Below are positions 442 to 33,412 of a stretch of DNA of 62,341 nt, in pieces (the stretch's first letter is position 1; each line of letters begins with the position of its first letter). The stretch spans positions 1 through 62,341 of the forward strand of contig JBIJBE010000021.1 in assembly GCA_044345405.1 (NCBI GenBank), read 5' to 3'. A model generated the notes under the pieces. That model was given only the letters and a program-made list of their open reading frames with translations. It did no database searches and had not been told where the DNA came from. The stretch is from Bdellovibrionota bacterium (GTDB lineage Bacteria; Bdellovibrionota_C; UBA2361; OMII01). The translations under genes were made by a program, and so were the position numbers.

Positions 442-635
442 CTGGTACAGCCCAACTATCTCCCCTCAAACTTCAAACTAAGTAATCATACGAATTCCGC
501 TCTTGTTATGAGAACCAGGTTGGCCCAAGGAATTGTTGTCTCGCCAAGAAGAACGAGTTTGTCCACATGAAGGCTCGAAAAGGCTTGGTTTTTCGCCCTC
601 CATAAATACCGCCTCCCTGGTACAGCCCAACTATC
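442..635 (+). repeat. Two identical 19-bp direct repeats CTGGTACAGCCCAACTATC (442-460, 617-635)
   Basis: Seen directly; same motif family as the ends flanking the RAYT-like transposase. Confidence 0.8.
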
Positions 636-1025
636 GTCCACCATTTCTCTCAGAGACCGCGCGGGATTTGAAATACAGCAATAATCTACACAGTTTCGAT
701 ATCTTACCTCTATCGCCCTGGCACAAGGAGGGGCCTACAGCCTCAGCCTACATGCTTTCAAAACATCTAAAGCTCGCATTCTAATCGCGCGCGCTCCCTG
801 AGAGAAAGAGCAGGGAGCAGGAGAGGAAGACTTCCGGCGTGAGCAAGGTGCCCCTCCTTCGGCCCGTCTAATGGAGCAAAGTTCAACGGAAGATCCCGTC
901 AGTCACGACTATCGCTATGTATTTACCAAAGGGTTTCGATCCGAAAAGAAAAAAAGGGGAAAGTCATGACTGACACGAGTTCTCAGGTTCGCCTGCCTTT
1001 CCAAGGTAGTGTGCACCATTCGGGA

Positions 1026-2150
1026 CTAGGCAACGCCGGCATCGAACTCGTCCTGCGCATACACGTGTTCAACAACAGGCACGTCATCCCGAGGCGCACC
1101 AACGACATCAGCGCTCTCTGCGTTGATCGGTCGTCTCTCTGCTCCACTCGCGAGTCGCTGCCACGGCGACGATACTTTCTCTTGCTTAGGATAATACAGC
1201 TTATGCAGGTCGTTCATGCTTGGCTCTCCCGGTATGCAGGAGACCCCGATTCGTTTTTCCTCAGCGAGAAACGCGTTGGCTTCCTGAATTGCGTTACTGA
1301 TGAAGCTCCTTACATCGTGCATGACGGACTCGATCTTGTTGCACAGAGAGCTCTTTCGCGCGGCATCTAACTGTGGAGCGGCCGTAATATAGTCCTGCAG
1401 CTGGCCTTCGAGGGTAGCGATAAAGCTAGTCATATCATGCATGTCAAAGCGGGTGGTCTCCCGTATCGTTCGGGCAAGAACCGCGACTAAGTTTGAACTT
1501 ACATCGCTCAGTACTGGATAGAGCCCGTTCAACGGAGACACCATCTTCCGGAACTCAGCGGAGTAAAGAGCATCTACGACCCGGCCTACAGACCGAATGT
1601 GGCTGTTGCTGACGAGATCCAGCGGCGTGGGATTGAACGTAAACCCGACCCACCGATCAAAGTGAGCGCTGTTTACCATCTTACTCCACTCGCTTGAACC
1701 TTTTGAATCAGGTTCCACGCACACACTCCTAATCCCGGCAGCGTTGAGAACCGCGATACCTCTGAACGGCTCGCCCGAGGGCAGCTTTAGATCCTGAAGC
1801 GCCAACCGGTCCGGTGACCTGTCCCCCAGGGGCTTGAGTTCGATTCCCGCGCGCACTTGGAGAATCTCCGGAAGCGCGAGGAACGCTTTTAGGTTAGCGC
1901 CCGGCGATAGCTCCGCGGTGTACACAACCGATGCGGCTCGCGAAAACGCCGGCTGCTCTTGGCTAAGGCGGATGCCAAGCTCCGCAAGGTGTTTCTGTTG
2001 TTCCTCGTTGAGCGGGCCCGCCGTTCTAATCCAGATCGCCTGGGCCTCGCCGTGGTATATCCCTCCCCTATCGGTATTTGGAGCCGCTGACATCGCCAGG
2101 TTCGGGCATAGCTTTTTCGTAAGAAGCGGTTCGTTTGTGCTGAAACTCAT
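1026..2150 (-). CDS. Hypothetical protein (374 aa)
   Basis: Long ORF with an AGGA/GGAG-type RBS, directly downstream of the ORF ending at 2170; no confident family. Confidence 0.7.
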   Translation of the reverse strand: MSFSTNEPLLTKKLCPNLAMSAAPNTDRGGIYHGEAQAIWIRTAGPLNEEQQKHLAELGIRLSQEQPAFSRAASVVYTAELSPGANLKAFLALPEILQVRAGIELKPLGDRSPDRLALQDLKLPSGEPFRGIAVLNAAGIRSVCVEPDSKGSSEWSKMVNSAHFDRWVGFTFNPTPLDLVSNSHIRSVGRVVDALYSAEFRKMVSPLNGLYPVLSDVSSNLVAVLARTIRETTRFDMHDMTSFIATLEGQLQDYITAAPQLDAARKSSLCNKIESVMHDVRSFISNAIQEANAFLAEEKRIGVSCIPGEPSMNDLHKLYYPKQEKVSSPWQRLASGAERRPINAESADVVGAPRDDVPVVEHVYAQDEFDAGVA

Positions 2151-2169
2151 AAAGGTTCTCCGTAAACAG

Positions 2170-2994
2170 CTAGTCTTTGTTGCTCAATCCAAGTCCCTTT
2201 GCCATCTGCTCTAATCCCAGCGCGACTGCACCGAGAGACATCGCGAGGGCTACGTTGTTGAGGCTGAATAAGCTGACGCTCTCACCCAGTGAGGAGCTGA
2301 ACACCAACGCTCCGGCGATCGTAGCGGCCGCTCCACCAACGGTTTGAACGATGTGCGAAAGAGCCGAACGATTCCTTGATGCGCCACTAACTGCCGCAAT
2401 ACCGACAGCGCCGAGAGCCGCTGCGTCGACACCCAGGCGAGCTATGGTGCGTGACGAGTCAACTTTGCTCATCACCTCAACCAGTTCTGCGGACTTAGAC
2501 GGAGGGAGATCAAGCTGATTTTCACTCTTATTCAATTCGTCCATAAAGCCCAGATGTGGTTTTTGTCCGCTCATCACGGACTGGGCGCAGAATTTCTCGA
2601 AGGACTCTGTATCGAGGGTCGCAAAGGCTCTCAAAATCCCAACGCGGGCGGCGTCAGGGTAAACTTCACGGACGGTTCGAGCTACTCGCTGAGCGTCCTC
2701 AACTTTTCCTTGGAGCATGAGATCCTTCACAACCTTTTCAACAACAGAGGCCATCTCCTTTTCAACTACCTCTGGGCGGACATCCTTGAGCCCCGAACCT
2801 TCGATGATCTTGAAGGCATCCCTCGCCGTTCCGTGAATAAGAGCGTTCTCAACGTGCGAGAGGCTTGAGGCGCTCGGCGAACTAAGGTGGTCGGCTCCTT
2901 CCGCAGCGGGAAGAGCAGGCGCTTGCAACAACGAGAGCGCCAGAGCTGTGGTCGCTGCGGTGGTTGAGGGTGAGGGGCACATGGTGTTTTTCAT
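2170..2994 (-). CDS. Hypothetical membrane protein with C-terminal hydrophobic helices
   Basis: ATG at 2994 after GGAAGGAGA; N-terminal hydrophobic stretch and 2-3 C-terminal TM-like segments. Confidence 0.65.
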   Translation of the reverse strand: MKNTMCPSPSTTAATTALALSLLQAPALPAAEGADHLSSPSASSLSHVENALIHGTARDAFKIIEGSGLKDVRPEVVEKEMASVVEKVVKDLMLQGKVEDAQRVARTVREVYPDAARVGILRAFATLDTESFEKFCAQSVMSGQKPHLGFMDELNKSENQLDLPPSKSAELVEVMSKVDSSRTIARLGVDAAALGAVGIAAVSGASRNRSALSHIVQTVGGAAATIAGALVFSSSLGESVSLFSLNNVALAMSLGAVALGLEQMAKGLGLSNKD

Positions 2995-3171
2995 ATGAGG
3001 TCTCCTTCCCATCAATCCTACGAGGAGCACGGCGGTAGCCAAGGGTGGGAGGACCTCTTTGGTGTTTGTCCACTGGGAAGACCTGACTATGGACATTTGC
3101 CATCCAGCTTCCGTAGCAATCGCAGGTGAGCCAAGCTGTTGATGCGACCCTAGTTTTTGAGAGGAATACGT

Positions 3172-3984
3172 ATGTTTGCCGATAAAGCCAAAGCTCCCAC
3201 CCCCAACCTTACCCTGGCTGACTGCAGGGTTAGTCCTGAGCAACCGTATCGCGGTTCAGCTTTCGATCACCTTGGGGCTGCCGGACATGAAAAGGAGTAT
3301 CTCGGCTATCGTGAGGCACGCACGTTTGCGGGTTATGGAATCTCTCTCCTCGACTCCGATCGGACCCCCCTTCCCCTCTATCGTGATCAGGACGGAACGC
3401 TGTGGGTAGCGATCGAGGATGGGGCGTCGTTTGTGGCTGAATTACACCTGCAAGGCTGGAGTCGGCGTGGAGATAGGTGGGCAGCGGCTCTCCGCGTGAA
3501 CGATACGCAGGCGTCAACTTCTCCGAGCGAGAAGGTCGATGAGGCGTTCGTGATCGTGACTCAACCACGTCACAAGGGCGACAATATACTTACAGGCATT
3601 ACCCAACCATCGGGAGAAGTACAGCAGTTTGTAGCGCGTTCCGAGGAGCACCCACATCACTCACCTAACGGACCCGCTCGCTACGGTAGTGTAACGTGCA
3701 CCTTCTACTCTGAGTGGCATCCCCAACGCTTTATGAGCCCAAGCCTTCGAGGGCCGGTGGTGAGTGGATATAGTGTCGGTTCGAATCGTGAGGGAGTCGC
3801 TCAAGCGCAACGCGAAACGTTTACCGTAAGCAGAGATTTAAATACGAAAGTTGAGATTCGCTATGCACCACAAGCTGAGATCTCCCGGCTGGGGCTTGAA
3901 CCCGTTGAGCCTGTAAAGCCGACTGATGGTATGGATTTCCAGTGGCAGGGACTCTACATGCCTCGAAGAGCGGCCCATACGTGA
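3172..3984 (+). CDS. Conserved hypothetical beta-rich protein
   Basis: ATG after GAGAGG; pattern (LPLY..DG.LWV, YGSV.CTFY, EIRYA...LGL) resembles a widespread uncharacterised family. Confidence 0.65.
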   Translation: MFADKAKAPTPNLTLADCRVSPEQPYRGSAFDHLGAAGHEKEYLGYREARTFAGYGISLLDSDRTPLPLYRDQDGTLWVAIEDGASFVAELHLQGWSRRGDRWAAALRVNDTQASTSPSEKVDEAFVIVTQPRHKGDNILTGITQPSGEVQQFVARSEEHPHHSPNGPARYGSVTCTFYSEWHPQRFMSPSLRGPVVSGYSVGSNREGVAQAQRETFTVSRDLNTKVEIRYAPQAEISRLGLEPVEPVKPTDGMDFQWQGLYMPRRAAHT

Positions 3985-3994
3985 ACGTAGAGAA

Positions 3995-4981
3995 TCACTC
4001 AGCCCTCTCGACAGGCGCACAAAACGGATAACACGCCACCTTCATCCGTTCCTCGCGCTTGAGAATGCCCACGACCTTGAGAAGCTTGCCAAAACGTTGC
4101 GAGAGCTTCGCCGTGATAGTGTCGACGCATTCTCTTGAGGGTGCCTCTACTCCAACCTCAAAGTCCCAAGCGCCAAAGCTTTCTAGGAATACGGTAACTC
4201 TCGACTCACTTTGACAGAATTCGAACAGCTCCTTCCGCAGATCCGGATGGAGGGTGCACGCTTTCAGTGTGACGGTATAAACATCCATCCCCAACGCGGT
4301 GGCATTCGGAAGGTAGACAAATCGCTCAATCACTCCATCGGCTTTCAAGGAATTCACCCTTTCGCTCACAGAGGAGTGAGGAAGTTCTAACTGGCGAGCG
4401 AGATCCCGAATGGAGCTGTACGTGTTGGTGAGCAGCCCGGAAAGGATGACCCGATCGGTATCATCTAACTGAACCACGCCTCCCTCGGCTGTTAATGTGA
4501 GGTATTCCTGGCCTGGTCGACTTGGCGCGAGGTATTTCGGGCTAAACATGGTGAGCGCGGTCTGGATCTGAGTGGTGCTTGAGTAAAAGGAAGCTCCGTG
4601 TGCTCGACCGAGCTCCTGAAGTGCTCGTTGATATTCCAGCGGGGTCTTGCATACGAACGAAGCGCAGTAACGGAACTCATCAGAGGCGTATCGAGCGAGC
4701 CAAGAAACCTTATCGCTCGCTTGGAGTGTGGCGACGAGCGCATCCTCGTGCGCCTTTACCGGATTAAAGTAAAAGAGAAAAACCGAGTAGCCGAGTCGGA
4801 ATACGTTCACGAAGGGATAGAAGCGAATGAGCTTTCTCTCTTCAAGCTTTGCGAGAGAAGCTCGGAGCGTCGAAACACTCTTTCCGAGAGTGTCGGCGAT
4901 CTCTTTCAGCGAAACGTCTCCGTCAAGCTTTACGGCATGGATGACGGCCGCCTCGAATTCGGTAAGCTCCTTTGACTCCAC
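3995..4981 (-). CDS. Lrp/AsnC-family transcriptional regulator with tandem-duplicated HTH+RAM modules
   Basis: Two modules: LTEFEAAVI..SLKEIADTLG..LEERKLI and LDDTDRVIL..SIRDLARQLE..LKADGVI, plus GAWDF. Confidence 0.85.
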   Translation of the reverse strand: MESKELTEFEAAVIHAVKLDGDVSLKEIADTLGKSVSTLRASLAKLEERKLIRFYPFVNVFRLGYSVFLFYFNPVKAHEDALVATLQASDKVSWLARYASDEFRYCASFVCKTPLEYQRALQELGRAHGASFYSSTTQIQTALTMFSPKYLAPSRPGQEYLTLTAEGGVVQLDDTDRVILSGLLTNTYSSIRDLARQLELPHSSVSERVNSLKADGVIERFVYLPNATALGMDVYTVTLKACTLHPDLRKELFEFCQSESRVTVFLESFGAWDFEVGVEAPSRECVDTITAKLSQRFGKLLKVVGILKREERMKVACYPFCAPVERAE

Positions 4982-5258
4982 TCGCTCTCCCCAAGATATG
5001 AACTACTCGAAGTATCGAAACGATTGAGCGCGCAGTTAACAATTCGCGCCGCCATAGTCATCGGTACACGGGCACCTCTCTGCTCAAACGCATAGGAGAA
5101 ACTCGTAGCATGGGACACCTAGGTGCCGCAACGGAGAGGTTTTTTAAGCGCTTTTCCGCGCAACTATCAGGAGACGCAAGAAGACCGGCCGCAGCCGTGC
5201 TACACGGCACGCTCTCGGAAGCATATCAAATGGGGGGGGGGGCAAGGAGTGAGTTGAT

Positions 5259-7493
5259 ATGGCAGAAATTGCTGCAAGATCGTCCCCAACCGTTGTTGAC
5301 CACACATCCGACGATACCTCTCTCACGAGCGATGCTCCGGAAATCGCTACCATTCAAACTTCACCCGCCGAGTTCATCAGCGCTCTGAAGCGATTGGCGC
5401 AGGGCGAGCCTGTGGAGGCGATCCTCCCCGGCGACAAATTTCATGATTACGGGAGGTTTATAACCCACTTCGTCGAAGCCACTCCCCTTCCGGAGTTGAT
5501 GACCCCGCAAGAACGCAGTGACTACGATGCCCGGCGAGCTCTCATCCGCAACGAGTTACTGGTAGAGCTTAAGAGGGACCTCAATGACATACTACGCGCG
5601 TCTCCCCCGCCGTCGGCGTCGAAGGAGGCACACGCGAACGCGATCGTCGCAAAGCAACTGGCTACCGAACTCACCGTTGCTCTTCGCATGGACTTGGAGC
5701 CACTTTCCCGAAGGGGTGACAAAGACGTATGGAGCACACTCATTGAGGGGCTTCGCGATAGGTCACAGGAAAACCACCTCGTTTCCCGCGGACACACGAG
5801 CGAGAGTATCATCCTCGCGCTTACCGAGCTAGAGACCGCCTGTCGAGAGATGAACTCTAACAAGGAGCACATCGGTGTAAAAGCCATTGAGGGAGGTCTC
5901 CAACACTCGCCAAACGGCGGTGAGAGGATCTCCAAGCTTGGCTCCGCCTTCTTCAAGGCTGTTAGAAATGACGTACTGCACGCGCGTGAGGAGGGCCGTC
6001 CAACCCTTCCTGATGACCTCGTGAGAAACTGCGTCGATTATCTGATTACGCGAGCAAGCCCAGTTGGAGCATTAGCGGGGATTAATAGCCCCCTCTCCAT
6101 TTTAAGAGATGGGGGTGGGCTCAGTGTCGAAGAAGCAGAAAAGCGGCAGCTTAGTTTCCTCAACGAGCCACTCTACCAACGGGTATCAGAGCGTTTTGTT
6201 GAGACGCAATGGGACTCCTTGGACTTCGAAGGCCCGCATGGGTTCCTCATCTGTTCCGACCCGGTCGCGCGGTACGATCTTGAGATCAAGTTAGCAGTAG
6301 AATTTCTGCGAGAGGACGCGACTAAAGCCCTGCAAGCTGCGGGGATCACCCTAAAAAAGGGGGAGGATCCACTTGCGGTGCTGAAAACCAAGACCGCGGA
6401 GCGAATCTTTGGAGACTCTCCAACCCGCGCGGAGGGATGGCAGGAGATCATATGGATACTCCTCAAACACGAGAAGGCCTATTTCTCCGCAGACCCCAAA
6501 GCAACCGAAGAGGCGGCAAGAGCGGAGTCCCTTGACGAGCCGATAACCAAAGAAATTCGGGATATGGGCGTCAGGAGCGAGGGGCATTTTATACTCTCTC
6601 TGTGCTGTCTGTTATCAAGAACTATCGACCGCGCCCAGGCCCTACCGGGCAAAAACCCGGCGGAAGCTCTTACAAACCTTGAGAGCGATGTTGTATCCGC
6701 CCTCCAAGAGGGAGCCCCGCGTCCTACCATTCAGTTTTTCAAATACGCGCTCACCATTGAGCGACTGTTCAAGGACATCGCTGATAGGACATCTCCTACC
6801 TGGAAGGAGACGTGGAATAAAAAGGTCTCTCTTGAGCAGCACGCCAGGAACACCATATTCACCTCCGATAAGACCAAGGCGCTTTTGAACGAAATGGGGG
6901 TATCTCAGAGCGATGCCCCTAAAATAGTTGGACTCGTGTCATCCCTCTTCGACACCCTCAGAAATCGTTGGGCGCACAACACAAGAGAGTGCCCCACGAA
7001 AGCAGAGGTCGCTGAACTTTTGCACACCGCAGCTCTTCTTTCGACGCTCACCGACCTGACCGACGGCCGACTTCCACAGTACACCTCAACCCGCACCCAC
7101 TTTGAGGTCAGAGATGTGGCACTGGCGGCGTCGCTCCACTCGAGCGTGTTCGAGTGCATCTCTTCTACTATAGCGGGAACGACATCGACTCAGGAGGCGG
7201 CAGCCTCGCTCAAACGGCTTGTCTCTGAATGTGCCAAGGAGTCCCCTTCGGGTGACCCGTTATCCTCTGACGACAAATTTCGCCAAGGGGCCGTGCGGGA
7301 GCTTAGCGAGGGAATTACGGCGATATGGGAAAGTAAGATCCTACCGCCAGAGGAAACTACTGAGGGACTTATGTCGAGGGCCGCTCTTGTGAGCGCGTTA
7401 CTCCGGTGGACTAAGGAGCCTTCTCTTCATGAGCCGACCTTTCCGTTGTGGCAGGTATACGGTACAGCAGCGCCGTCACCGGGCTCGGTGTGA
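5259..7493 (+). CDS. Large helical hypothetical protein (744 aa)
   Basis: Long ORF with AAGGAG RBS, divergent from the Lrp/AsnC regulator. Confidence 0.8.
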   Translation: MAEIAARSSPTVVDHTSDDTSLTSDAPEIATIQTSPAEFISALKRLAQGEPVEAILPGDKFHDYGRFITHFVEATPLPELMTPQERSDYDARRALIRNELLVELKRDLNDILRASPPPSASKEAHANAIVAKQLATELTVALRMDLEPLSRRGDKDVWSTLIEGLRDRSQENHLVSRGHTSESIILALTELETACREMNSNKEHIGVKAIEGGLQHSPNGGERISKLGSAFFKAVRNDVLHAREEGRPTLPDDLVRNCVDYLITRASPVGALAGINSPLSILRDGGGLSVEEAEKRQLSFLNEPLYQRVSERFVETQWDSLDFEGPHGFLICSDPVARYDLEIKLAVEFLREDATKALQAAGITLKKGEDPLAVLKTKTAERIFGDSPTRAEGWQEIIWILLKHEKAYFSADPKATEEAARAESLDEPITKEIRDMGVRSEGHFILSLCCLLSRTIDRAQALPGKNPAEALTNLESDVVSALQEGAPRPTIQFFKYALTIERLFKDIADRTSPTWKETWNKKVSLEQHARNTIFTSDKTKALLNEMGVSQSDAPKIVGLVSSLFDTLRNRWAHNTRECPTKAEVAELLHTAALLSTLTDLTDGRLPQYTSTRTHFEVRDVALAASLHSSVFECISSTIAGTTSTQEAAASLKRLVSECAKESPSGDPLSSDDKFRQGAVRELSEGITAIWESKILPPEETTEGLMSRAALVSALLRWTKEPSLHEPTFPLWQVYGTAAPSPGSV

Positions 7494-7711
7494 GCAACGC
7501 AGGCATCCTCAAATCGTCCCAAAAGGATCTACCGGTGGTTGGGGGTGAGTAGGCGAGATGGCGAAATACCCTGGCGTAACAATCGGCGATCTCTCGAGGT
7601 GTAGGCGTTACCTGGGTAGGCGTGGGCGGTCCTTGTGTCGGCTTATTGTATTGAGACGATAGCATTCCTTCTCCTACGTTCTTTTGTACTTCCGTGCGTG
7701 AGCGAGTGCGC

Positions 7712-8257
7712 CTAGATGCACCTCTGGTGATACTCTAGCGAGATCCGCCTCATCCCTTTTGTAACGTGAACGAATACCGGGGCTTCGGCATCGGTGTATG
7801 ACGTTAATTGCGGGTCTTGAGACTCTCGGTAGTGTGGCGGGTATGAAAGAGGGAATTTGGTAACTGGAAAACATCCAGTCTGCTCAGGACAGGAGAAGCC
7901 GCCGTTTGTTGCGGTGTCGCGATTACACTGCTTCATTCCGAACGCTTCATTCATAACGCCGTACGCGTATGTCCCTCCAACACCTATCTCGTAACGCCCG
8001 GGCTGAAGCCGAACAGACAAAACTCCACGTCGATTAGTGTTCGCGAGTCGGACAGTAGAGCTGTACAGCGTTCTTACATAGACCTTTGCGCCGATGAGAA
8101 ACGAAGAGCGGCAGAGGACGAGAGTTCCCTGATATCCACATGTGTTACGTGGCTTTTTCATGATAACCACGGCGCCCCTGTTTGAAGACTCGGCGTAGCT
8201 CTCCGAAGAGAGCGCGATACTCGTCATGAGAATCAAGGCACTGATTACTGATTTCAT
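7712..8257 (-). CDS. Secreted Cys-containing hypothetical protein
   Basis: Signal peptide MKSVISALILMTSIALSSESYA; strong RBS; LQPGRYEI carboxypeptidase-regulatory-like strand. Confidence 0.65.
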   Translation of the reverse strand: MKSVISALILMTSIALSSESYAESSNRGAVVIMKKPRNTCGYQGTLVLCRSSFLIGAKVYVRTLYSSTVRLANTNRRGVLSVRLQPGRYEIGVGGTYAYGVMNEAFGMKQCNRDTATNGGFSCPEQTGCFPVTKFPLSYPPHYRESQDPQLTSYTDAEAPVFVHVTKGMRRISLEYHQRCI

Positions 8258-8454
8258 AATTGAAACTCCCTCTCTCCTAGAACTTTCGAGAACTGGTGTC
8301 GAAACACTAGCCCTCTACCACCCTCCAAGCCAGTTGATTGGGGTTTGCCCGAAAGATTGGTCTTGGTATGGACAAAAAACACTGGGCGTTGCGCACCCTC
8401 TCAGCGGCCGGCGTCTTGCCTGAAGCGAAACACCCTCCCTTTGCGTAACGTATC

Positions 8455-8621
8455 GGCGGCCGACACCCTCCTACGCTGCGCTACGGCGAGGTAGGCCGGC
8501 CGCCCTCCCAGGGTGCGAACTCGAAACACGGGAGCGCCGGTCAGCCTGCCTCGCCGTAGCGCAGCGAATGAAAACGTTGCTACACAACCGAGAGAGGGAA
8601 CGCGCATCGAGGTTCCCTACT
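8455..8621. repeat. REP cluster: GGAG-foot REPs with nested hairpins plus a GTAG-foot REP
   Basis: GGCGGCCG...CGGCCGCC-CTCC with a CTCCTACGCTGCGCTACGGCGAGG insert; second GGAG unit at 8531; GGGAACGCGCATCGAGGTTCCCTAC at ~8596-8620. Confidence 0.65.
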
Positions 8622-8666
8622 GGTAGTGGAGGGATGCCCCATGCTCTGGTCCAATGCTCTGGTACT

Positions 8667-8866
8667 CCAATTCTCTGGTACACCCTACTCTTCTTTCCCC
8701 ATACCCGGGCTACTTTCTCACGACCTCTCCCGAAACTTCCCCTGCCCGTCCCCTACCTTTCAAAATGAGGCGAAGCTGTTGATATCGCGGGGTGGCTGAA
8801 ACTATTTCTGATATGCGCTGCGGCGCTTGGGCGGCTTAGATAAGTTGGGGTGTACCAGAGGATTGG
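8667..8866. mobile_element. ~200-bp MITE/REPIN-like element, full copy
   Basis: Terminal inverted repeats CCAATTCTCTGGTACACCC...GGGTGTACCAGAGGATTGG; near-identical to 10444-10645. Confidence 0.85.
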
Positions 8867-8955
8867 GCATTCTTCGTTTGCGCATAGTGCCTCCTACATC
8901 GAGAGGCGTGCACAAATGTTGCATCTTTAATTCACGAAAGTTGGGCTGCACCAGA
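8866..8955 (-). pseudogene. Relic of the 5' end and upstream terminus of a RAYT-like transposase
   Basis: Aligns with 24862-24951 (encodes MRKRRMP vs MRKPRMP; same RBS hairpin; AAAGTTGGGCTGCACCAG end). Confidence 0.8.
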
Positions 8956-9030
8956 GAAGGGGGGGTCTCATAAGTTCAAAAATACTGTCCACTCCGATCC
9001 TCCGTAGCCCAGAAGGCTGATATCTAGGTG

Positions 9031-10201: not shown

Positions 10202-10294
10202 TGGTACAGGGCAACTCCCGAGGCATGAGATTACATGAGTACCGGGCGGCAAAACGATTGAGATTTCAGCATAGTGAATAGTTGCCCTGTACCA
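10202..10294. mobile_element. 93-bp mini-element with perfect 15-bp inverted ends TGGTACAGGGCAACT
   Basis: TGGTACAGGGCAACT at 10202 and AGTTGCCCTGTACCA ending at 10294. Confidence 0.75.
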
Positions 10295-10443: not shown

Positions 10444-10645
10444 CCAATCCTCTGGTACATCCTACTTTTCTTTCCCCATACCCGGGCTACTTTCTCACGA
10501 CCTCTCCCGAAACTTCCCCTACCCGTCCCCTACCTTTCAAAATTAGGCGAAGCTGTTGTGATATCGCGGGGTAGCTGAAACTATTTCTGATATGCCCTGC
10601 GGCGCTTGGGCGGCTTAGATAAGTTAGGGTGTACCAGAGGATTGG
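10444..10645. mobile_element. ~200-bp MITE/REPIN-like element, full copy
   Basis: CCAATCCTCTGGTACATCC...GGGTGTACCAGAGGATTGG; few differences from 8667-8866. Confidence 0.85.
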
Positions 10646-11731: not shown

Positions 11732-11855
11732 CCAATCCTCTGGTACACCCTACTTTATCGAGGACGCCCGAGCGCCGCAGCGCATATCATAAATAGTTTC
11801 AGCTATCCCGCCATATCAACAACTTCGCCTACTTTTGAAAGTTGGGGTGTACCAG
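11732..11855. mobile_element. Short (~125 bp) reverse-orientation variant of the 200-bp element
   Basis: Interior matches the reverse complement of the right half of 8667-8866; ends CCAATCCTCTGGTACACCC and GTTGGGGTGTACCAG. Confidence 0.8.
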
Positions 11856-12570: not shown

Positions 12571-13740
12571 ATGGGTATTTCCTATACCAACAATCCTAAT
12601 GAGGAGGGCGTTACGTCTCACGGTCCTTCTGGGTCTTCTCTATCCGCGGGTCTTTATGGGCCCTCCGTGGAGAGGCTCAAGATAATCCTGGAGACCGAGC
12701 GCGACGGATGTGTGCGGTCCCTCTGTGATGCTTCGCCGGACCTCAATTCCCTCGTTCATCAGTACGTCTCACGATTGTTTACCGCGATTGAGCGCCGTAT
12801 TGATGAGCAGCATGTGAGCGATGATGAGAACTTCGAGGGGGCGGTAAAGGCTGCGATCGCGAGGGAAGGAACACAGCTGTACTATACTGCCGGGCGGGAT
12901 GTGCTCGGTCCCCTCGTGGTTAGGTTTGTGGAGAACGTTCTTGCACACGCACCCAGGGGAGCCACCGTCGCGTTCCTCGCGCGGGATGCGGAGCCGTACT
13001 ACCGAGCCGCCAAGATAATTGGCCAGATGCCGGAGTTTTTGGATAAGGATCTCCAGCTTCGCTACGTCACGCTGAATCGACGGCATTTTAAGATATTCGA
13101 TGAGAACTTTAATCGGGCACAGCCGACCGATGTAGATACGGAACAGGAGGAACTAAAGGAGGTCTATCTACGGCAGGAGCGTTTCGACAACCCTAACGGC
13201 GTGGTGATTGTCGACACTGGGTGTTGGGGAACGATGGTCGAGAAACTGTTTGCTGCGATGGCTGTCAAGGGACGGGAGTCGCTTAATCTTCAGCAGGTGC
13301 ATTTCATGTATAGTCACAATCCGGGTGTTTACGGTTTCGTGAACGATGTGGCGATTAAAGGGGGTGCTCCTGATCTGGCTAAGGAAGGGGTTTTCGTGGC
13401 GGATACCTTCGAGTGTCTTCCGAAGCGGAATGAGAGCTCTACGCGCTTTCGTTGTGGAGAAAAAGGCACGGTAGAGCCGGTGCTCGTGCCGATTGACTCA
13501 CCGTACCTTCCGGTGTGGCAGTGAGGTGTGCTGACGGGTATCGACGCGTCGGCGAGGACATTTGTTGAAAAGCGAGCGACATTCCCAACCGCACTCGAGG
13601 CTGTCCATAGTATGGAGCGAAAGCGGATTGAGGCTCGATCTGAATTCACTGGAGTTTTGCATGAGGCTACGCCAAAGTGGTCACAGGGAGATGCCTACCT
13701 TGCGCGGTGGTCTATACCGCCGATATCTCCGCAACGATAA
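12571..13740 (+). pseudogene. Phosphoribosyltransferase-like protein (FLARD / VDTGxxGT motifs) with an in-frame TGA at 13522-13524
   Basis: VAFLARDA, YVTLNRR and VIVDTGCWGT motifs; the ORF resumes in the same frame and runs to 13740, just before the next gene. Confidence 0.6.
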
Positions 13741-13763
13741 ACGCCTGACACGTGACGATCGAT

Positions 13764-14552
13764 ATGAGTACAAGTTCACCCTTTAATCTTACCGGAGTTG
13801 TTCACCTCCCGCCCATGCCTGGTTACGAGAGCTCCCCTGGGATAGAGCGCGTTATTGAATTCGCAATCCAGGAAACGCGCACGTTAGAGCGGGCCGGATT
13901 CACGGGGATCCTGCTTGAGAATGAGGGAGATCGTCCGCACGCCCTTCACGTTTCCGATGAGTATATCGAGAATACGGCCCAATTGATTAAGGCCGTCAAA
14001 GCAGCCACTGCGCTCCCGGTTGGCTTCGAGATCCTCTATGACATGGTGGGGACTATTCGAGCGGGGATCGATGGCAGGGCTGATTTTGTTCGGCTGGATG
14101 TCTTCACGGATGACACCGAGGTGCGGTGGGGCATCGTGCGGGAGTGTACCAACGAGGTTGCAGATCTCCGTCGACGCTCTCCTGAGTTCTTCCCGCAGAT
14201 CTGGGCTGATATTCATGTCAAACACGGTAGGAATCTGTCGGGCCGCTCCCTGGCTGAATCCACCCGTTTAGCAATCGACCACGGCGCACGTGCTCTCATC
14301 GTAACCGGCACCGTCACTGGTGAGCCCCCGACAATTGCTGACTGTCAGGAGATGCGTAGGTACGCCAATGGGGTGCCCCTCTTGGTTGGAAGTGGCTTTT
14401 CAGCTGAAAACGCCTCGAGATTAGGTGTCGTATGCGATGGAACGGTCGTCGCGAGTTCTGTGCAGGTGGATGGGCGGTTCGACCTAGAGAGGTGTCAGAG
14501 GCTAGTCGAGGCAGTTATTCGACGACAGGAGGGGGCTGTATGTTCTCATTAG
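13764..14552 (+). CDS. BtpA/SgcQ family TIM-barrel protein
   Basis: GVVHLPPMPG, GILLENEGD, ADIHVKH, LIVTG..TG and LVGSG motifs. Confidence 0.9.
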   Translation: MSTSSPFNLTGVVHLPPMPGYESSPGIERVIEFAIQETRTLERAGFTGILLENEGDRPHALHVSDEYIENTAQLIKAVKAATALPVGFEILYDMVGTIRAGIDGRADFVRLDVFTDDTEVRWGIVRECTNEVADLRRRSPEFFPQIWADIHVKHGRNLSGRSLAESTRLAIDHGARALIVTGTVTGEPPTIADCQEMRRYANGVPLLVGSGFSAENASRLGVVCDGTVVASSVQVDGRFDLERCQRLVEAVIRRQEGAVCSH

Positions 14553-15361
14553 CCTGTATCGGGGACGTGGCCGTAGACAATTATGTCACTATCGCGCGGA
14601 GGTATGTGGGCGGGATCAGTTTCAACGTGGCGTGGAATGCCAGGGCGTACGGCGTTGATGCTCGTGTATGTTCCGCTGTTGGCACCGACCCGGATGGCGT
14701 GGCAGTGCTGGAAACGCTCGCTCAAAGAGGTGTTCCGTGCGATCAGATTAGGGTGCGGGATGGACGTACGGCAGAACAACGCATCCTCATCAAACCAGAT
14801 GGTGAGCGTGTCTTTGATGGGTATCGAACGGGTGTGCTTTCCTCCCTTTCGGTTCAGGATCTTGCAGAGTGGAATCTTTATCAGTTTGATGCTCTCCATA
14901 TTCCGCTCTCCGATGGCCTTGAGGCGCTCTTTGATTCTATCGCGCACGACGTGCGTGGAGTGATCAAGATAGCCGACCTCTCGGTTGATGGACCGAATCA
15001 GGGAGGTCTACACGCAGCTGTCCAACGGTACGCGGAGTGTTTTGATCTCATCTTTGTCGGGGGGCGAAGGGAGGATCTGCTGTATGTTCGTGAGATCTCC
15101 CGAATCCATCCGCAGACCCTTTTCGTACTCACACTTGGAAGTAAAGGGGTCGTCGCGTTTCACGGCGGTGAGCCGTATGAGCAAGGGGCGCTGCCGGTTG
15201 ATCAAGTTGTTGACACAACCGGATGCGGGGACGGATTTCAGGGGGCGTGTATCGCACGGTGGCTAGCACAGAGAGGTGACATTCGGGGAGCCCTTGAAGC
15301 TGGTGTCGCTCAGGGTGCAAAGGTGGCGTCGTTTTTGGGCGCTACTAAGTGTGAGATGTAA
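14540..15361 (+). CDS. PfkB family carbohydrate kinase (fructoselysine 6-kinase-like)
   Basis: CIGDVAVDNY, GGISFNVA, LTLGSKG and VVDTTGCGDGF motifs. Confidence 0.9.
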   Translation: MFSLACIGDVAVDNYVTIARRYVGGISFNVAWNARAYGVDARVCSAVGTDPDGVAVLETLAQRGVPCDQIRVRDGRTAEQRILIKPDGERVFDGYRTGVLSSLSVQDLAEWNLYQFDALHIPLSDGLEALFDSIAHDVRGVIKIADLSVDGPNQGGLHAAVQRYAECFDLIFVGGRREDLLYVREISRIHPQTLFVLTLGSKGVVAFHGGEPYEQGALPVDQVVDTTGCGDGFQGACIARWLAQRGDIRGALEAGVAQGAKVASFLGATKCEM

Positions 15362-21604: not shown

Positions 21605-23530
21605 ATGAAGAAAAAGATCCTGCTCTCCTTCCTCTCCCTCTTCATCATTGTCGCTGCCGGCGCAGGGGTTGCCCTCTACAAACTTAATGATATCGTCTCG
21701 ACCTTCAGGCCTCAAATTGAGCAACAACTTTCGACCGCTCTCGGCGCGCGAGTACAACTCGGTGAGATCTCAGCATCGATCTTTCCGACCTGCCACCTCT
21801 CCGTGAAAGAGGTGAAGGTGCTCGCGGCAGACGGTAAGGCAGCCGCGCTCTCCCTGGGAGGGCTCACAGCCTCGGTCGCTCTGCGTCCTCTGCTCAGCAA
21901 GAAGCTCGATATCTCCAATCTTGAGATCGAGCGACCTCGGATTACCCTTATTAAGGATGCCTCTGGCACCACGGTGCAAGGACTCACTCCAGCGAAATCC
22001 GCAGGCCAACCCTCCCAGCAACCTCAGACATCTCCCTCGCCATCTCAGGCGAATGCATCCTCAGCACCGATCGACGTAACGGTCTCTCGCATCACTATCT
22101 CAGATGGCGAACTCACTCTCGACGACCGAACAACCAATAAGCGCACACCGGTTCGAGCTATCAATCTCGATGCCGGCGTCGCGGTACAAGGCAAGGAGAT
22201 CCAGATTCCAACCCTCTCTCTCTCGTTTGCAGCATCCCCTCTTCCACCGGTCCGATTCACCGGTTCAAGGCTTTCGTACGGTCAGGACTCGGGCAAAGTT
22301 TCGATCGGCTCCTTCGACGCGGCATCAGATGTGGGATCCATTCACGCCGATGGAATCCTCGATGCGACGACTCAGAGCGGAAACCTCAACGTAACGTCGA
22401 ACGGGATAGACCTTAAGAAGGTCGCCACACTCCTCAAGGACGCCGCACCCGCTCTCATGGCGCTCAATCCGAGCGGATCTATCACTACATCGCTCGCGGT
22501 TACCCTTGCCGGAGGACAGCCGTCAATCAAGGGACCGTTCAACCTTCGAGAGATCAATATGGACCTCCCCGGGCCTCAGAAGGTTCGGGGCCTCGCAGGT
22601 GAAATCGCAGTTCAGGGAGCGCTCTCAGATCTCTCGCTCTCCGCTCCGAAACTCCAACTCTCATTCCAAGACACACCGCTCCGCGTGGCGACCGCGGCCC
22701 GCATTACCTCCTCCAACGTTACGGTGCAGTCCTTAACGATTAACGGTTTCGGGGGAGAAGCGCGATTGCCGGCGACCTTACAACTCGTGGCACCAAAAAA
22801 TTTCTCGGCACAACCGAACCTCTCCGGAATCTCGATCGGAGAACTGCTCAAGGTAACGAAGCCATCACTCGCGAGCATGGTCTCAGGAACGATAGTATCA
22901 TCCAAAGGGAACTTCTCCGGTTCGACGATGGGGGATATCGCCCGCTCAGTTAACGGTTCAGGGGACATCACCGTGAAGGATGCCGTCCTCAAAGGTGTGA
23001 ATCTTCCCGCGCTCATCCTCTCGAAGGTCTCGAACATCCCGCTTCTTGAAGGGTCACTTCGGTCAAATATCCCACCTGAGCATCAGAAGTATTTTAACGA
23101 CCCAGACACCAAGATCTCGGAGCTCAAGAGCGAGTTCTCGCTAGGTGGTGGCGTTATCAACCTTAAGTTACTTCGGGCCACAAGCGTGGCGTTTACCCTT
23201 GAGAGTAGCGGCACCATGTCGATGGACGGAGACCTAAACCTCTCATCAAACTTCATCCTCGCGCCTGACATCTCCGCGTCGCTCGCGAAGCGTTCGAAGA
23301 CGGTAGAGAAGATGCTCAACAAGAATAAGCTCCTCGAGATCCCGGTCGTGATCAAAGGAAGGAGCCCTGCGCTCGTAGTCGCTCCAGACATCTCCAAACT
23401 TCTTCAGGGCGCTGGCGGAAAGATCCTTGAGGAGAAGGCGGGAAGCCTCCTTGAAAAGGCGCTCGGGGGCAAAAAGGGCGCGGATGGAAAGCAGAAGAAT
23501 CCACTCGGCGGGCTCTTTGGCATTAAGTAG
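21605..23530 (+). CDS. AsmA family protein
   Basis: N-terminal anchor, LRPLLSKKLDISNLEIERPRITL, beta-groove repeats, C-terminal LEIPVVIKG. Confidence 0.85.
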   Translation: MKKKILLSFLSLFIIVAAGAGVALYKLNDIVSTFRPQIEQQLSTALGARVQLGEISASIFPTCHLSVKEVKVLAADGKAAALSLGGLTASVALRPLLSKKLDISNLEIERPRITLIKDASGTTVQGLTPAKSAGQPSQQPQTSPSPSQANASSAPIDVTVSRITISDGELTLDDRTTNKRTPVRAINLDAGVAVQGKEIQIPTLSLSFAASPLPPVRFTGSRLSYGQDSGKVSIGSFDAASDVGSIHADGILDATTQSGNLNVTSNGIDLKKVATLLKDAAPALMALNPSGSITTSLAVTLAGGQPSIKGPFNLREINMDLPGPQKVRGLAGEIAVQGALSDLSLSAPKLQLSFQDTPLRVATAARITSSNVTVQSLTINGFGGEARLPATLQLVAPKNFSAQPNLSGISIGELLKVTKPSLASMVSGTIVSSKGNFSGSTMGDIARSVNGSGDITVKDAVLKGVNLPALILSKVSNIPLLEGSLRSNIPPEHQKYFNDPDTKISELKSEFSLGGGVINLKLLRATSVAFTLESSGTMSMDGDLNLSSNFILAPDISASLAKRSKTVEKMLNKNKLLEIPVVIKGRSPALVVAPDISKLLQGAGGKILEEKAGSLLEKALGGKKGADGKQKNPLGGLFGIK

Positions 23531-23542
23531 CCCGGACATCGG

Positions 23543-23765
23543 CTGGTACACCAGCTGGTGCAACCCACCAATTTTAACTGCGGCATCTGATTTGTTTGAT
23601 CTTACCGATTGCGCACACCAGCTGGTGCCCAGCTGGTTGCCCAGCTGGTGCAACCCACCAATTTTCCCAGCCACCAGCTGGTGCAACCCACCAATTTTCC
23701 ACCAGCTGGTGCAACCCACCAATTTTAACTGCGGCATCTGATTTGTTTGATCTTACCGATTGCGC
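23543..23765 (+). repeat. Tandem array of transposon-end/REP-like units CCAGCTGGTGCAACCCACCAATTTT (4 copies) inside a 65-bp direct repeat
   Basis: Copies at 23551, 23641, 23674, 23702; 23550-23614 is identical to 23701-23765. Confidence 0.9.
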
Positions 23766-23912
23766 TCGTTCTCGCGCGATAGAAATAGACTACCGCACTG
23801 TGATGTCACCAAAAGGAATGATTTTTAGCCCATGAAGGCTCAAAAGATGTCAGTTCTGTCGGTATGCGGATACACGGGTGCCTCCAGTTTAACCTGGGAT
23901 GCGTTGGGGCTA

Positions 23913-24881
23913 TCAGAGAGCGTTACATAATTGGGGGATCGGAGGTTTGAAACACCCTGGCGGCCACGGGACGTCCCTATGTCCCTGCTTCATAAGGAGA
24001 TAACATTCCTTGCACTGACGAATGAAGCTGTGGAAGGTCTCCAGAAATTCCAACCGAAGCTCTTTACATGAGGCATACATGAATATCTTCCGACTCTTCT
24101 TTCGGGGAACATAGGCATCTGTAACGACAAACCCCTCAATTCTGCGTACGGTGACTTTCTTAGTAGCCAGCCGAGCTTCCTCTTGTCGAACTTGATTGAT
24201 GATTTGCTGTCGTATCTTCTCAATCTCAATCGGATCTACGATGTTAAATGCCTGAAGCCATTTAAGGGGCATAACACGTACGATGTTACGTGTGCGGGAG
24301 GACGCTTTCTCCGTAATCGTATTTATAAGACCACGCTCCTCAGAGAGCCCTGGATTCTCCTGAGAGAGCGGGTCAACATCGGTAAGAACAACCCACGGAA
24401 CCTCTTTTGCAACGCTTGCATTAACATCTGCAGGCACCGAGAGAAACTCTTTCCAGGTATTGCAACCGCTATACTCATCAATGGATCGAACAAGTCCTGC
24501 ACGGACCGGATTGAGGTAGGTATAGACGACCCGGGCTATGGCGGCTTCAAGATCGAGAACCTCTCCGATGTTCGTTCGGCGGTCCCACAGATTTAGTTGC
24601 CGGAGACTTAGAAGACGCTTTAGAAAGTCCGTTAGCCGTTTCTTGAGTCGCTCGTGGAAATGGGTAAGTGCCGCACAATCAAGAGAAAACACCTGCATGT
24701 GGACATGGTTACTCATCCATACATAACCACATACGATGATAGCTTCAGAGCAAAGCAAGCGTCCGATGATACTCTCAATCAAAAGCTTCGTCAGAGCGCG
24801 CGCTGGCAGCGGCAACCCCCTGATGGACCGAAAACACATATCGTACATTTTTTTACTTCGAGGCATTCTTGGTTTACGCAT
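23913..24881 (-). mobile_element. HUH/Y1 transposase, REP-associated tyrosine transposase (RAYT)-like, with C-terminal extension
   Basis: YVWMSNHVH (HUH), LW and YTYLNPVRAGLV motifs; flanked on both sides by repeat arrays. Confidence 0.9.
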
Positions 24882-24930
24882 AGTGCCTCTTACATCGAGA
24901 GGCTTACGGAAGTGTTGCGTATGGAATTCA

Positions 24931-25059
24931 CAAAAGTTGGCCTGTACCAGTGAATTCGTCAAAAGTTGGCCTGTACCAGTGAACTTAAATTCACAAAAGT
25001 TGGCCTGTACCAGTGAATTTAGCCAGTGAATTCGTCAAAAGTTGGCCTGTACCAGTGAA
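24931..25059 (-). repeat. Tandem array CAAAAGTTGGCCTGTACCAGTGAA (4 copies)
   Basis: Copies at 24931, 24960, 24994, 25036; the reverse complement CTGGTACAGGCCAACTTTT resembles the left array. Confidence 0.9.
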
Positions 25060-25287
25060 TTTCACTTTGGTTTCTACTATTAGTAGAAAGGTCACGGTGC
25101 GCCCCGTCCGAATCAGTCAATTCCTATCCTCATTCATATCCCACGCATGACTAGCGGCGGCGATACAGGTAGTAATTATTATCTACATACGGGAATTCTC
25201 AGTGCGCAACTGAGGTGAATTCTTGCCGAGTGCGCCTTGTCGGTGCCTCAGGCGCGGTTGTTTGATTGGTTTTTTTGGAGAATAAAT

Positions 25288-25833
25288 GTGAGAACCGCTG
25301 CAGCAATTTCTGCAGCATGGATGCTGATGGTGATTTTGGGCGGGACGGCTCCAGGGCAGGAGAGTCCCGCGTTTCCCGGCTTCCGAATGGAGGCTGTTGG
25401 GCCAGTCGGTGTGAGCTATCAGAACCGACCCGGCGAGTGGACGGTGATTAACTTGGGGAACGGCCCCAAGACCGTGTTCGTCGACGGGGGCGGTAATCTG
25501 ATAGAGCATCGGCTCGTCTCCTGGGAGCTCGGCGTTCCCACGGAGACGTACATCACGGCCGGACAGCTCTTTGTCCGGCACGGGGGAAGAACCTACCGGT
25601 TCGCCCCGCAGGGGATGAACGTTCCGGGGGTCGGAGTCGCTGCGGTGACTCGGCCGTGTCAGGGAATCTTCGTCACCTGGATGGTAACAAGGACCGAGAC
25701 TGTTCCCACTACCCAATGGGTGCCGATGACTCAATGGGTGGAGGTGCCGTCCTCCGGCCCGCTGCCGATCGCTCCCACAGCATCCCCTCCCGGCGGTGCT
25801 AGTGTTGGCGGTCGGCGTCCCAACACCACGTAA
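25288..25833 (+). CDS. Secreted hypothetical protein
   Basis: GGAG RBS, GTG start, signal-like N-terminus, GC-rich codons. Confidence 0.55.
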   Translation: MRTAAAISAAWMLMVILGGTAPGQESPAFPGFRMEAVGPVGVSYQNRPGEWTVINLGNGPKTVFVDGGGNLIEHRLVSWELGVPTETYITAGQLFVRHGGRTYRFAPQGMNVPGVGVAAVTRPCQGIFVTWMVTRTETVPTTQWVPMTQWVEVPSSGPLPIAPTASPPGGASVGGRRPNTT

Positions 25834-26037
25834 AGCCCAAGTGTCTCGCGAGACACTTTTCAACTCCTCCTAGGGTTCTTATCTCGCGCACTGAGAACCC
25901 ACCTTTTCCCCCTGTCTGTCCCCCAAGCCGTTAGAACACCCTGCTGTATGGAAGCCGTCCGATACCTGGCTCCACACGAACACAAAAATCTCGGTTTACC
26001 AAATCTCAGCTCTGCGGGTATCCTAAATGAACCGCTC

Positions 26038-33118: not shown

Positions 33119-33412
33119 GAGCGGCCCCGGGGCTCGCATACGTCTACGACGACATTAGACGCACTACGCAACCCATCGACGTCTAACGGTTTACGTTTAT
33201 CGTCGTCGGAGGACGTCGTCGATTCCAAGGTAGGGTGTACCAAGGGGAAGGCAATATCAACGACACCTGCCCGGCTCCGTCTCCATCGAGGCACGCTTTG
33301 GTCAGGAGGGTCCGTGGGAGCGAGATAGTGTTGCACCGTGAAAGTTCATCGATAGTCTCCCCTTGGTAACTATGTAACACTCGTCGGGCATGTCTAGGTT
33401 TCTAGTAGCCCC

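Follow-up and report, generated by a model that had tools for sequence, protein, structure and literature searches.

A probable insertion-sequence-like element of lake Bdellovibrionota, built from a long RAYT-like Y1 HUH gene between mutually inverted repeat arrays

The locus and its end arrays

We analysed a 62,341-nt stretch of DNA from a Bdellovibrionota bacterium (contig JBIJBE010000021.1 of assembly GCA_044345405.1; hereafter the window), in which a gene for a Y1 HUH protein related to the repetitive extragenic palindrome (REP)-associated tyrosine transposases (RAYTs) lies between two arrays of short repeat units (Table 1). The segment 23536–25063 is probably one copy of an insertion sequence (IS)-like element, which in the terms of the literature would be a TIRtron or a REPtron, i.e., a RAYT-like gene bracketed by terminal inverted repeats (TIRs) or by REPs. 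Its only gene encodes a protein that is long and divergent and falls into the TnpA_REP branch (class 2, Y---NP) of the Y1 HUH endonucleases, and the host group is the lake Bdellovibrionota, where the element is multi-copy.

The left array contains four exact plus-strand copies of the 21-mer CTGGTGCAACCCACCAATTTT, starting at 23555, 23645, 23678 and 23706, and part of it was built by duplication of a larger block (Table 1). Truncated 5′ half-units lie between the full units (e.g., 23543–23550 and 23615–23640). Such half-units, made of the variable 5′ part and the first 4–6 core bases (X-CTGGT), are repeated one to two times in tandem just outside full terminal units, in the window as well as on contigs C39, C67, C25 and C77 and at locus L028 of another genome. 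The right array holds four exact minus-strand copies of the 19-mer core CTGGTACAGGCCAACTTTT (24932–24950, 24961–24979, 24995–25013 and 25037–25055), with 5′ ends at 24950, 24979, 25013 and 25055. A preceding sequence-only reading of this DNA had listed four copies of each repeat, inverted relative to each other, and we confirmed every one of them. The true unit is somewhat longer, about 25–28 nt, and includes a variable 5′ part of 7–8 nt. The two arrays are mutually inverted and stand one on each side of the gene, which is the arrangement of terminal inverted repeats in TIRtrons.

For the motif CTGGTRCA, the window has 20 occurrences where 2.17 are expected; the maximum among shuffled sequences was 5, and none of 100 shuffles reached 20. 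The repeats are therefore real and beyond chance. A longer form of the pattern is found four times, with 0.02 expected. An Rfam search of 23300–25300 returned nothing beyond chance-level microRNA matches (E ≥ 0.045), and matches in a promoter and terminator scan were no more numerous than in shuffled sequences.

Table 1. Coordinates of the element, its parts and related repeats within the window
Feature	Position	Strand	Remarks
Left (downstream) end array	23536..23726	+	Four full CTGGTGCAACCCACCAATTTT units, reading inward
Perfect 66-nt direct duplication	23549..23765 (23549-23614 and 23700-23765)	+	100% identity; each copy comprises a unit and 39 nt
Long RAYT-like Y1 HUH gene, 322 aa	23916..24881 (stop codon 23913-23915)	-	Open reading frame (ORF) 23913..24881; ATG start with ribosome-binding site
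5′ leader	24882..24931	-	Between innermost unit and ATG; GCAAC(A/T)CTT box and short hairpin over the ribosome-binding site
Right (upstream) end array	24925..25063	-	Four ~27-nt units with CTGGTACAGGCCAACTTTT cores, reading inward toward the gene
183-bp doublet, resembling a miniature inverted-repeat transposable element (MITE)	8675..8857	.	Inverted CCAATYCT-CTGGTACACCC(T/C)A(A)CT ends; sister-subfamily unit type
Second 183-bp-type doublet	10452-10636		Doublet relatives: 115 bp at 11740-11854, 93 bp at 10202-10294
Subfamily-A remnant	8866..8958	-	End unit at 8954, leader and first few codons; cut by the 183-bp doublet

A TnpA_REP-like core with a long conserved extension

The protein carries the motifs SNHVHM and YTYLNPVRAGLV; a TTG upstream of the ATG, which would yield 349 residues, sits within the repeats. 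H59, H61, W99, Y120 and N124 do not vary among the 124 aligned family members, and P125 is shared by at least 90% of them. The tyrosine motif Y120-x-x-x-N124-P125 thus has the Y---NP form, which in the classification described by Quentin et al (2018; PMC6006769) marks class 2, as opposed to Y---Q in class 1, and on this ground the protein is assigned to class 2, i.e., TnpA_REP. Both the HUH and the tyrosine motifs align with those of Escherichia coli TnpA_REP (PDB 4ER8), and only 58 residues separate them (H61 to Y120), with no insertion in the core. Together, the motifs and the match to 4ER8 argue for a place in the TnpA_REP branch.

A profile built from 11 paralogues of the same genome (see below) retrieved 4ER8 from the PDB over residues 1–143 (E 1.4e-6), while IS200/IS605 transposases appeared only at E 0.004–0.1. 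An AlphaFold (AF2) model computed from the 124 sequences (predicted local distance difference test (pLDDT) 93.7, predicted TM score (pTM) 0.91) likewise had 4ER8 as its best solved match in Foldseek (E 1.3e-6, TM 0.73 of the target) and in VIA-align (Z 13.8, root-mean-square deviation 2.9 Å, 154 of 165 residues aligned); the next solved structure in VIA-align was IS608 TnpA with Z 6.9. By motifs and model, the protein has an intact HUH and tyrosine centre on a TnpA_REP-like fold.

The catalytic core occupies about residues 1–143 and is followed by an extension of some 180 residues (145–322), which is conserved across the family. These results bear out the initial description of a 322-residue Y1 HUH protein near the RAYTs with a long C-terminal extension, apart from one detail: VPWPPGCF, taken for the end of the protein, lies in the tail and is followed by 14 further residues. 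No Pfam family matched the extension in the window protein or in the 11 paralogues, and the helix-turn-helix (HTH) domains Bac_DnaA_C, HTH_23 and HTH_28 were absent from the paralogues at E ≤ 1. In the full model the extension is predicted to pack onto the core. Modelled alone, the C-terminal 178 residues do not form a compact body (pLDDT 91, pTM 0.57); against solved structures they score a Z of 3.8 at best and in no case 5, which does not establish a new fold, and a search of the ESM Atlas returned unnamed clusters with a best score of 0.89, below the meaningful level. Prediction of a homodimer from two protein copies scored 0.00 and gives no verdict.

Paralogues and their units in the same genome

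A tblastn search of the 3.59-Mb genome identified 11 intact paralogues (on contigs C40, C39, C51, C73, C22, C43, C67, C18, C52, C69 and C26) that are 21–84% identical to the window copy. At least eight partial copies accompany them, comprising a cut copy on C41 and fragments on C76, C23, C50, C17, C22, C36, C45 and C67, and the family is matched at 10 of 170 contig ends. The idea of one master gene is not compatible with these numbers. Each paralogue has its own variant of the upstream unit in 1–9 tandem copies facing the gene, and inverted unit copies are located 155–240 nt beyond the stop codon. In nine paralogues the innermost unit lies 54–79 nt from the start codon. All variants follow a common plan: a variable stretch of 7–8 nt, a TG(G)TRS core, 4–7 nt, YAAC or CTAC, and a T-run.

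The units of the window gene itself are private. Its left 21-mer occurs genome-wide only in the four local copies, even when up to three mismatches are allowed, and the right 19-mer occurs seven times at up to one mismatch, four times locally and three times beside family genes on C41, C51 and C76. The genome-wide population of repeats that had been proposed for this gene is therefore not found. Counting the motif over the whole genome gave a divided result: the bare 8-mer CTGGTRCA is not enriched (142 matches against a rough composition estimate of about 234), whereas the extended motifs are, the class A pattern having 27 matches against 0–1 in three Markov simulations.

Hairpin potential is weak and inconsistent in the units of the window, which contain no GTAG. 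The left unit may form a 5-bp stem of -3.6 kcal/mol (z -1.1 to -1.6), and two values were obtained for the right units, -5.5 kcal/mol (z -3.0) and -2.3 kcal/mol (z -0.4). The array of the C18 paralogue (locus L007) does not fold (z -0.1), the C26 units have a 6-bp GTAGCC/GGCTAC stem, and units of the sister subfamily E are GTAG...CTAC palindromes with stems of 4–6 bp. The contrast with hairpin REPs that the sequence-only reading had drawn thus applies to the window copy and not to some of its sisters. No stable hairpin is common to the whole family, and given this weak and inconsistent folding it is the sequence, and not a hairpin, that the family conserves.

Two further observations concern Y1 and other transposase genes in this genome. 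On C73 (3698–4984, L003), a gene for a DDE_Tnp_1 (IS4-type) transposase (E 6.8e-22) is located between the Y1 gene and the outer four-unit array, and looks like an ordinary IS that entered the element. On C15 (62885–63151), a 186-residue open frame has a weak match to Y1_Tnp (E 0.004) and falls outside the long family.

The family in other genomes

A word-indexed search yielded 135 proteins, nearly all named "hypothetical protein" and none with a Pfam domain on record; one was called RayT. An exhaustive profile search extended the family to 412 clusters (50% identity) at E < 1e-30. In a sample of the phylum, matches at E ≤ 1e-20 are present in 105 of 124 genomes (65 of 73 of high quality); they number from 1 to at least 17 in each of these, and most are open frames. 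Of 125 confirmed loci, the best 80 lie without exception in metagenome-assembled genomes, whose labels read Bdellovibrionota, Bdellovibrionales, Oligoflexia, delta- or other Proteobacteria (Pseudomonadota), or just "bacterium"; 70 of these 80 were analysed further, 10 fragmentary matches being left out.

As anticipated from the window, homologues are flanked by related motifs. Among the 61 loci with a full upstream flank, 39 have at least two exact copies of an 11-mer within 450 nt upstream (25 have at least three), compared to 3 of 57 control windows placed 1–1.5 kb away. Downstream, at least two exact 11-mer copies are present in 29 of 59 loci and in 7 of 52 controls. Many loci also feature a [GC]CAAC[ATC] box 25–80 nt before the start codon (44 of 69, compared to 2 of 69 control windows), which in the window lies at 24890–24915. 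This GCAAC(T/A)CTT-type box is similar to the 3′ half of a unit; it may act as a promoter element or as a half-site.

We further compared unit classes with a tree of the 70 proteins. Of the 39 loci in which a unit occurs at least twice, 17 belong to the YTGGT and 22 to the YTGTA class, and a single change on the tree accounts for their distribution; shuffled classes needed 10–16 changes (10 values printed of 200 shuffles run). As judged from these sequences, unit type follows protein clade. Since kin share labels, the match between class and tree reflects joint inheritance of enzyme and ends and is not proof of recognition.

Borders, copies and movement

Sharp borders are found in sister copies. 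In the genome of the window, one further subfamily is broken over contig ends, with 5′ parts on C23, C45 and C67 and 3′ parts on C76, C17 and C36. The three 5′ parts become alike exactly at the unit CTGGAACACCCTAC, and the three 3′ parts diverge right after the inverted unit. From CTGGAACACCCTAC inward, C45 and C67 differ at 1 of 161 nt, whereas just outside only 9 of 40 nt match. In one other genome, the copies L028 and L029 share 94% identity along 1325 nt, a stretch bounded on both sides by the inverted unit; the flanks of these two fully bounded same-genome copies are unrelated and contain no direct repeat, i.e., no target duplication. The absence of a target duplication is expected for HUH chemistry. 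Two pairs of loci, L067/L074 and L039/L040, each drawn from two different genomes, likewise have their borders at units, and discrete elements elsewhere measure about 1.3 kb.

The congener G015 has an empty site: about 240 bp separate its AsmA-like gene from the following conserved gene, compared to 2.4 kb in the window. On C22 (3743–3961, L004), a subfamily-A gene with its end unit retains the first 73 codons and is cut at the terminal unit of a subfamily-E element, either by nested insertion or by recombination between family members. Taken together, the sharp borders at units, the near-identical copies, the G015 site and the nested events indicate that the units mark where discrete elements end, and that these elements have moved without duplicating their target. 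The proposal that the units behave as terminal inverted repeats is upheld by the same borders, as similarity between copies ends at the units.

One apparent pair of copies was set aside. A contig of genome G001 (C20, 15,015 nt; L101) contains the same 1334 nt, corresponding to one family element, at both of its ends (114–1447 and 13682–15015), and the two identical copies were for this reason rejected as independent. Either this contig has an identical copy of the element on each side of a 12-kb stretch, or its assembly is circular.

For the window copy itself, the sequence looks intact, no cognate units are dispersed in the genome and there is no sign of recent movement. Contigs from four lake metagenome runs (X1, X17, X20 and X21) break at its arrays and show the same junctions, with one joint, from a divergent strain, that skips 18 nt.

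Dispersed doublets and remnants in the window

Recurrence of the CTGGTRCA motif at 0.1–11.9 kb and near 33230 had been noted from the sequence alone. We recovered 11 sites between positions 114 and 11855 and a one-mismatch relative, TTGGTACACCCTACCTT, at 33243 on the minus strand, but the sites at 0.1–11.9 kb carry the unit of a sister subfamily, CTGGTACACCCTACTTT, and not that of the window gene. This 17-mer has about 50 copies at up to two mismatches on 17 contigs, with well under one expected by our own estimate. Many copies are paired, with inverted ends, as MITE-like doublets 93, 115 or 183 bp long, so that non-autonomous mini-elements, as predicted, do exist.

The subfamily-A remnant next to the first 183-bp doublet is 83% identical to 24863–24954 of the element, and the flank of the doublet reads through its ATG. 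On a larger scale, about 8 kb (442–8958) lie between subfamily-A units of downstream type at 442 and 617 (plus strand) and one of upstream type at 8954 (minus strand), and hold orphan genes and one HTH regulator (3995–4981). This segment is either a disrupted element or a pair of ends that now enclose foreign DNA. Searches of the orphan genes at 1–12 kb with PADLOC and NCBIfam recognised only the HTH regulator. The end of C39 (from 49467 onward) and positions 1–121 of the window form two halves of the 183-bp doublet type, and the two contigs are probably neighbours, broken at the doublet repeat. The roughly 0.9 kb adjoining the element (25060–25960), which G015 lacks as well, contains an ORF for 198 residues (25237–25833) with a signal-peptide-like start and no family match.

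Interpretation and alternatives

If the element at 23536–25063 is an IS-like unit, the arrangement of its parts suggests the following course. The enzyme would bind its own units, possibly through the extension, and would nick and rejoin DNA at the outer unit edge via Tyr120 and a metal held by the HUH residues. A strand would then be transferred to a new site, whereby the whole 1.3–1.5-kb element is moved, and short doublets with cognate ends may be moved in trans. Tandem arrays and outer half-units may have arisen when ends were processed repeatedly or abortively, or through slippage, although half-units as scars are speculation; the arrays may also act as extra binding sites. The end-processing step is the least certain one, because the single-strand scheme of IS200/IS605 does not fit: inverted units put the same sequence on opposite strands at the two ends.

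This misfit with IS200/IS605 peel-and-paste, where both ends are read on one strand, is one of several points that weigh against the IS reading. Discrete borders and near-identical copies, the marks of an autonomous IS, are found in sister copies and not in the window copy, which has no close twin in its genome (the nearest is 81% identical in DNA). No joint skipping the element was seen in the contigs of the four lake runs over 22900–25900, which were compared as contigs and not as reads, so that rare forms would be lost. The G015 site lacks the full 2.4 kb, about 0.9 kb more than the element, and its borders are unreadable as the intergenic DNA of the congener is too diverged. The folding values of single units, -2.3 to -5.5 kcal/mol with z -0.4 to -3.0, point to a weak and inconsistent hairpin potential. 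The window protein also misses the cut-offs of domain models: it has no Pfam match at E ≤ 1 and hence does not reach the gathering threshold of Y1_Tnp (PF01797), and the equivalog NCBIfam NF047646 (REP-associated tyrosine transposase) covers only residues 50–137 (29.4 bits, E 6.4e-7), below its cut-off of 80 bits. Among the 11 paralogues, seven match Y1_Tnp at E ≤ 1 (best 8.7e-10), and in a six-frame search of the genome five of eight Y1_Tnp matches are above the cut-off, the window copy not being among the eight. Finally, near-universal presence in the phylum, mostly as open frames, would also fit a gene kept by the host.

The last point leads to an explanation that we consider unlikely, in which the gene is a domesticated RAYT with a REP-like array, i.e., a classical REPtron, kept by the host, immobile and only maintaining or spreading short repeats. 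Its presence in 105 of the 124 sampled genomes and at the same locus in four lake metagenome runs would suit this explanation, as would the palindromic GTAG...CTAC units of sister subfamilies with their 4–6 bp stems and the fact that the nearest structure is that of the domesticated E. coli TnpA_REP. RAYTs, however, typically behave like housekeeping genes and are present in one copy per genome, as described in PMC5581495, whereas here 11 intact copies and additional fragments coexist and presence differs among congeners. Nor would immobility account for near-identical copies in different flanks, for sharply bordered gene-carrying units of about 1.3 kb, or for truncated and nested copies, and the window gene lacks dispersed cognate repeats.

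Much less probable is that the inverted units are ends moved by another enzyme, such as a DDE transposase acting in trans, with the Y1 protein as a passenger or an array-binding regulator. The ends do look like ordinary TIRs, the doublets resemble DDE-type MITEs, and a DDE_Tnp_1 gene is present inside the C73 element; this gene, however, is placed between the Y1 gene and the outer array like an inserted IS, and the unit-bounded elements of about 1.3 kb hold the Y1 gene only. DDE insertion normally leaves a target duplication, which neither fully bounded copy has, and unit type tracks the clade of the Y1 protein. Hardly credible, in our view, is the notion that the arrays are replicon iterons and the HUH protein a rolling-circle replication initiator. 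Direct repeats adjoin the HUH gene, and one 15-kb congener contig has the same 1334 nt at both ends, yet fold and sequence match Y1 transposases and not Rep families, inverted arrays are present on both sides, a dozen copies occur per genome, and the element is chromosomal, between genes that are neighbours in a congener. The repeated contig ends are the element itself and are more simply explained by two IS copies or an assembly wrap.

The IS-like reading of the segment could be taken a step further, which we do only tentatively and with doubt: the elements might constitute a new IS family, in which a TnpA_REP-type Y1 HUH enzyme with a C-terminal domain of new fold moves a unit with true inverted repeats. 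If so, the ends would be cut on opposite strands or via a double-stranded or panhandle intermediate, a route unlike both IS200/IS605 peel-and-paste and REP processing, and outer half-units and growing arrays would be footprints of aborted strand transfer.

How RAYT-like enzymes without hairpin REPs handle inverted-repeat ends has been a question since 2013, and no TIRYT enzyme (the RAYT-like type flanked by TIRs) is among the solved structures matched in this analysis. The family offers a natural test set, with hundreds of sequence clusters, a dozen diverged enzyme/end pairs in one genome, short non-autonomous partners and sharp borders without target duplication. In these lake Bdellovibrionota genomes it is also a main reason why contigs break and genes are locally disrupted, and in current annotation its genes are labelled "hypothetical protein" almost everywhere.

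Comparison with known systems

The closest known relatives of the element are REPtrons and TIRtrons (with their RAYT and TIRYT genes), described between 2012 and 2018. RAYT genes between inverted REP clusters (Ton-Hoang et al, 2012, PMC3333891; PMC6006769), RAYT-like genes between TIRs (Di Nocera et al, 2013, PMC3733652; PMC6006769) and genomes with several such genes, each with its own TIR family (PMC3733652; PMC6006769), are all described in these papers. The suggestion of a distinct system is therefore not supported, as earlier papers already report RAYT-like genes with inverted REPs or TIRs at their flanks (PMC3333891, PMC3733652, PMC6006769). We found no description of this particular family in the literature, although the supplementary tables of PMC6006769 and PMC3733652 may list members; in the main text of PMC6006769 the word "Bdellovibrio" occurs 0 times.

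Escherichia coli TnpA_REP (4ER8), which PMC6006769 describes under subclass 2.2, is the best match of the core in sequence and structure. The two share the HUH and Y---NP motifs, and the REPtron gene, too, has a short cognate repeat on either side, as inverted copies or clusters. The E. coli protein has 165 residues compared to 322 in the family, whose conserved 180-residue extension matched no known fold. Family units lack a consistent hairpin and those of the window lack GTAG, a genome holds a dozen copies instead of about one, and the whole gene-bearing unit is sharply bordered with near-identical copies. RAYTs with REPs or REPINs (groups 2 and 3 of Bertels) have palindromic hairpins tagged with GTAG as flanking repeats, a feature for which the units here give a mixed picture, with weak folding and no GTAG in the window and GTAG...CTAC stems in subfamily E. 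In contrast to these RAYTs, there is no large dispersed population of the window gene's own repeat.

TIRYTs and their TIRtrons (PMC3733652), mostly of subclass 2.1 as described in PMC6006769, resemble the family in several respects: Y1 genes are flanked by TIRs rather than REPs, a genome contains several genes with different TIRs, the HUH motif has the NHVH form, and there are small dispersed families of some TIRs, which occur singly, as dimers or in groups. The published TIRYT consensus GGGGWSAS was not seen in the units that we read, by inspection and not by a formal scan, and the HTH tail reported for subclass 2.1 (Bac_DnaA_C, HTH_23 or HTH_28) was not found by Pfam in the 11 paralogues. 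The median subclass 2.1 protein has 238 residues according to PMC6006769, and the family tail is about twice as long. Family ends, moreover, are often tandem arrays of up to nine units.

Subclass 2.3, from Chromatiales and Alteromonadales, is closest in length, with a median of 325 residues and about four copies per genome in the account of PMC6006769; it is also alike in its several moderately diverged copies, its long subclass-specific C-terminal tail and the lack of a typical REP. Its proteins, however, have NHYH, YVDLNP and a 55-residue core insertion (Table 1 of PMC6006769), compared to an NHVH-type motif and no core insertion in the family, and the host phyla differ. The IS200/IS605 transposases (IS608, ISDra2) share the Y1 HUH fold (Z 6.9), a small transposase-carrying element and the absence of target duplication. 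They differ by Y---Q, by subterminal hairpins on the same strand and by the lack of a C-terminal extension, where the family has Y---NP and inverted copies of one unit.

Compared by the descriptions in PMC6006769, the family fits none of the 12 published subclasses in length and motifs together. Five differences set it apart: a 180-residue tail without an HTH match, tandem end arrays, high copy number, an IS-like whole unit and the host phylum. The element is thus an undescribed variant of a known element type, and not a new kind of system.

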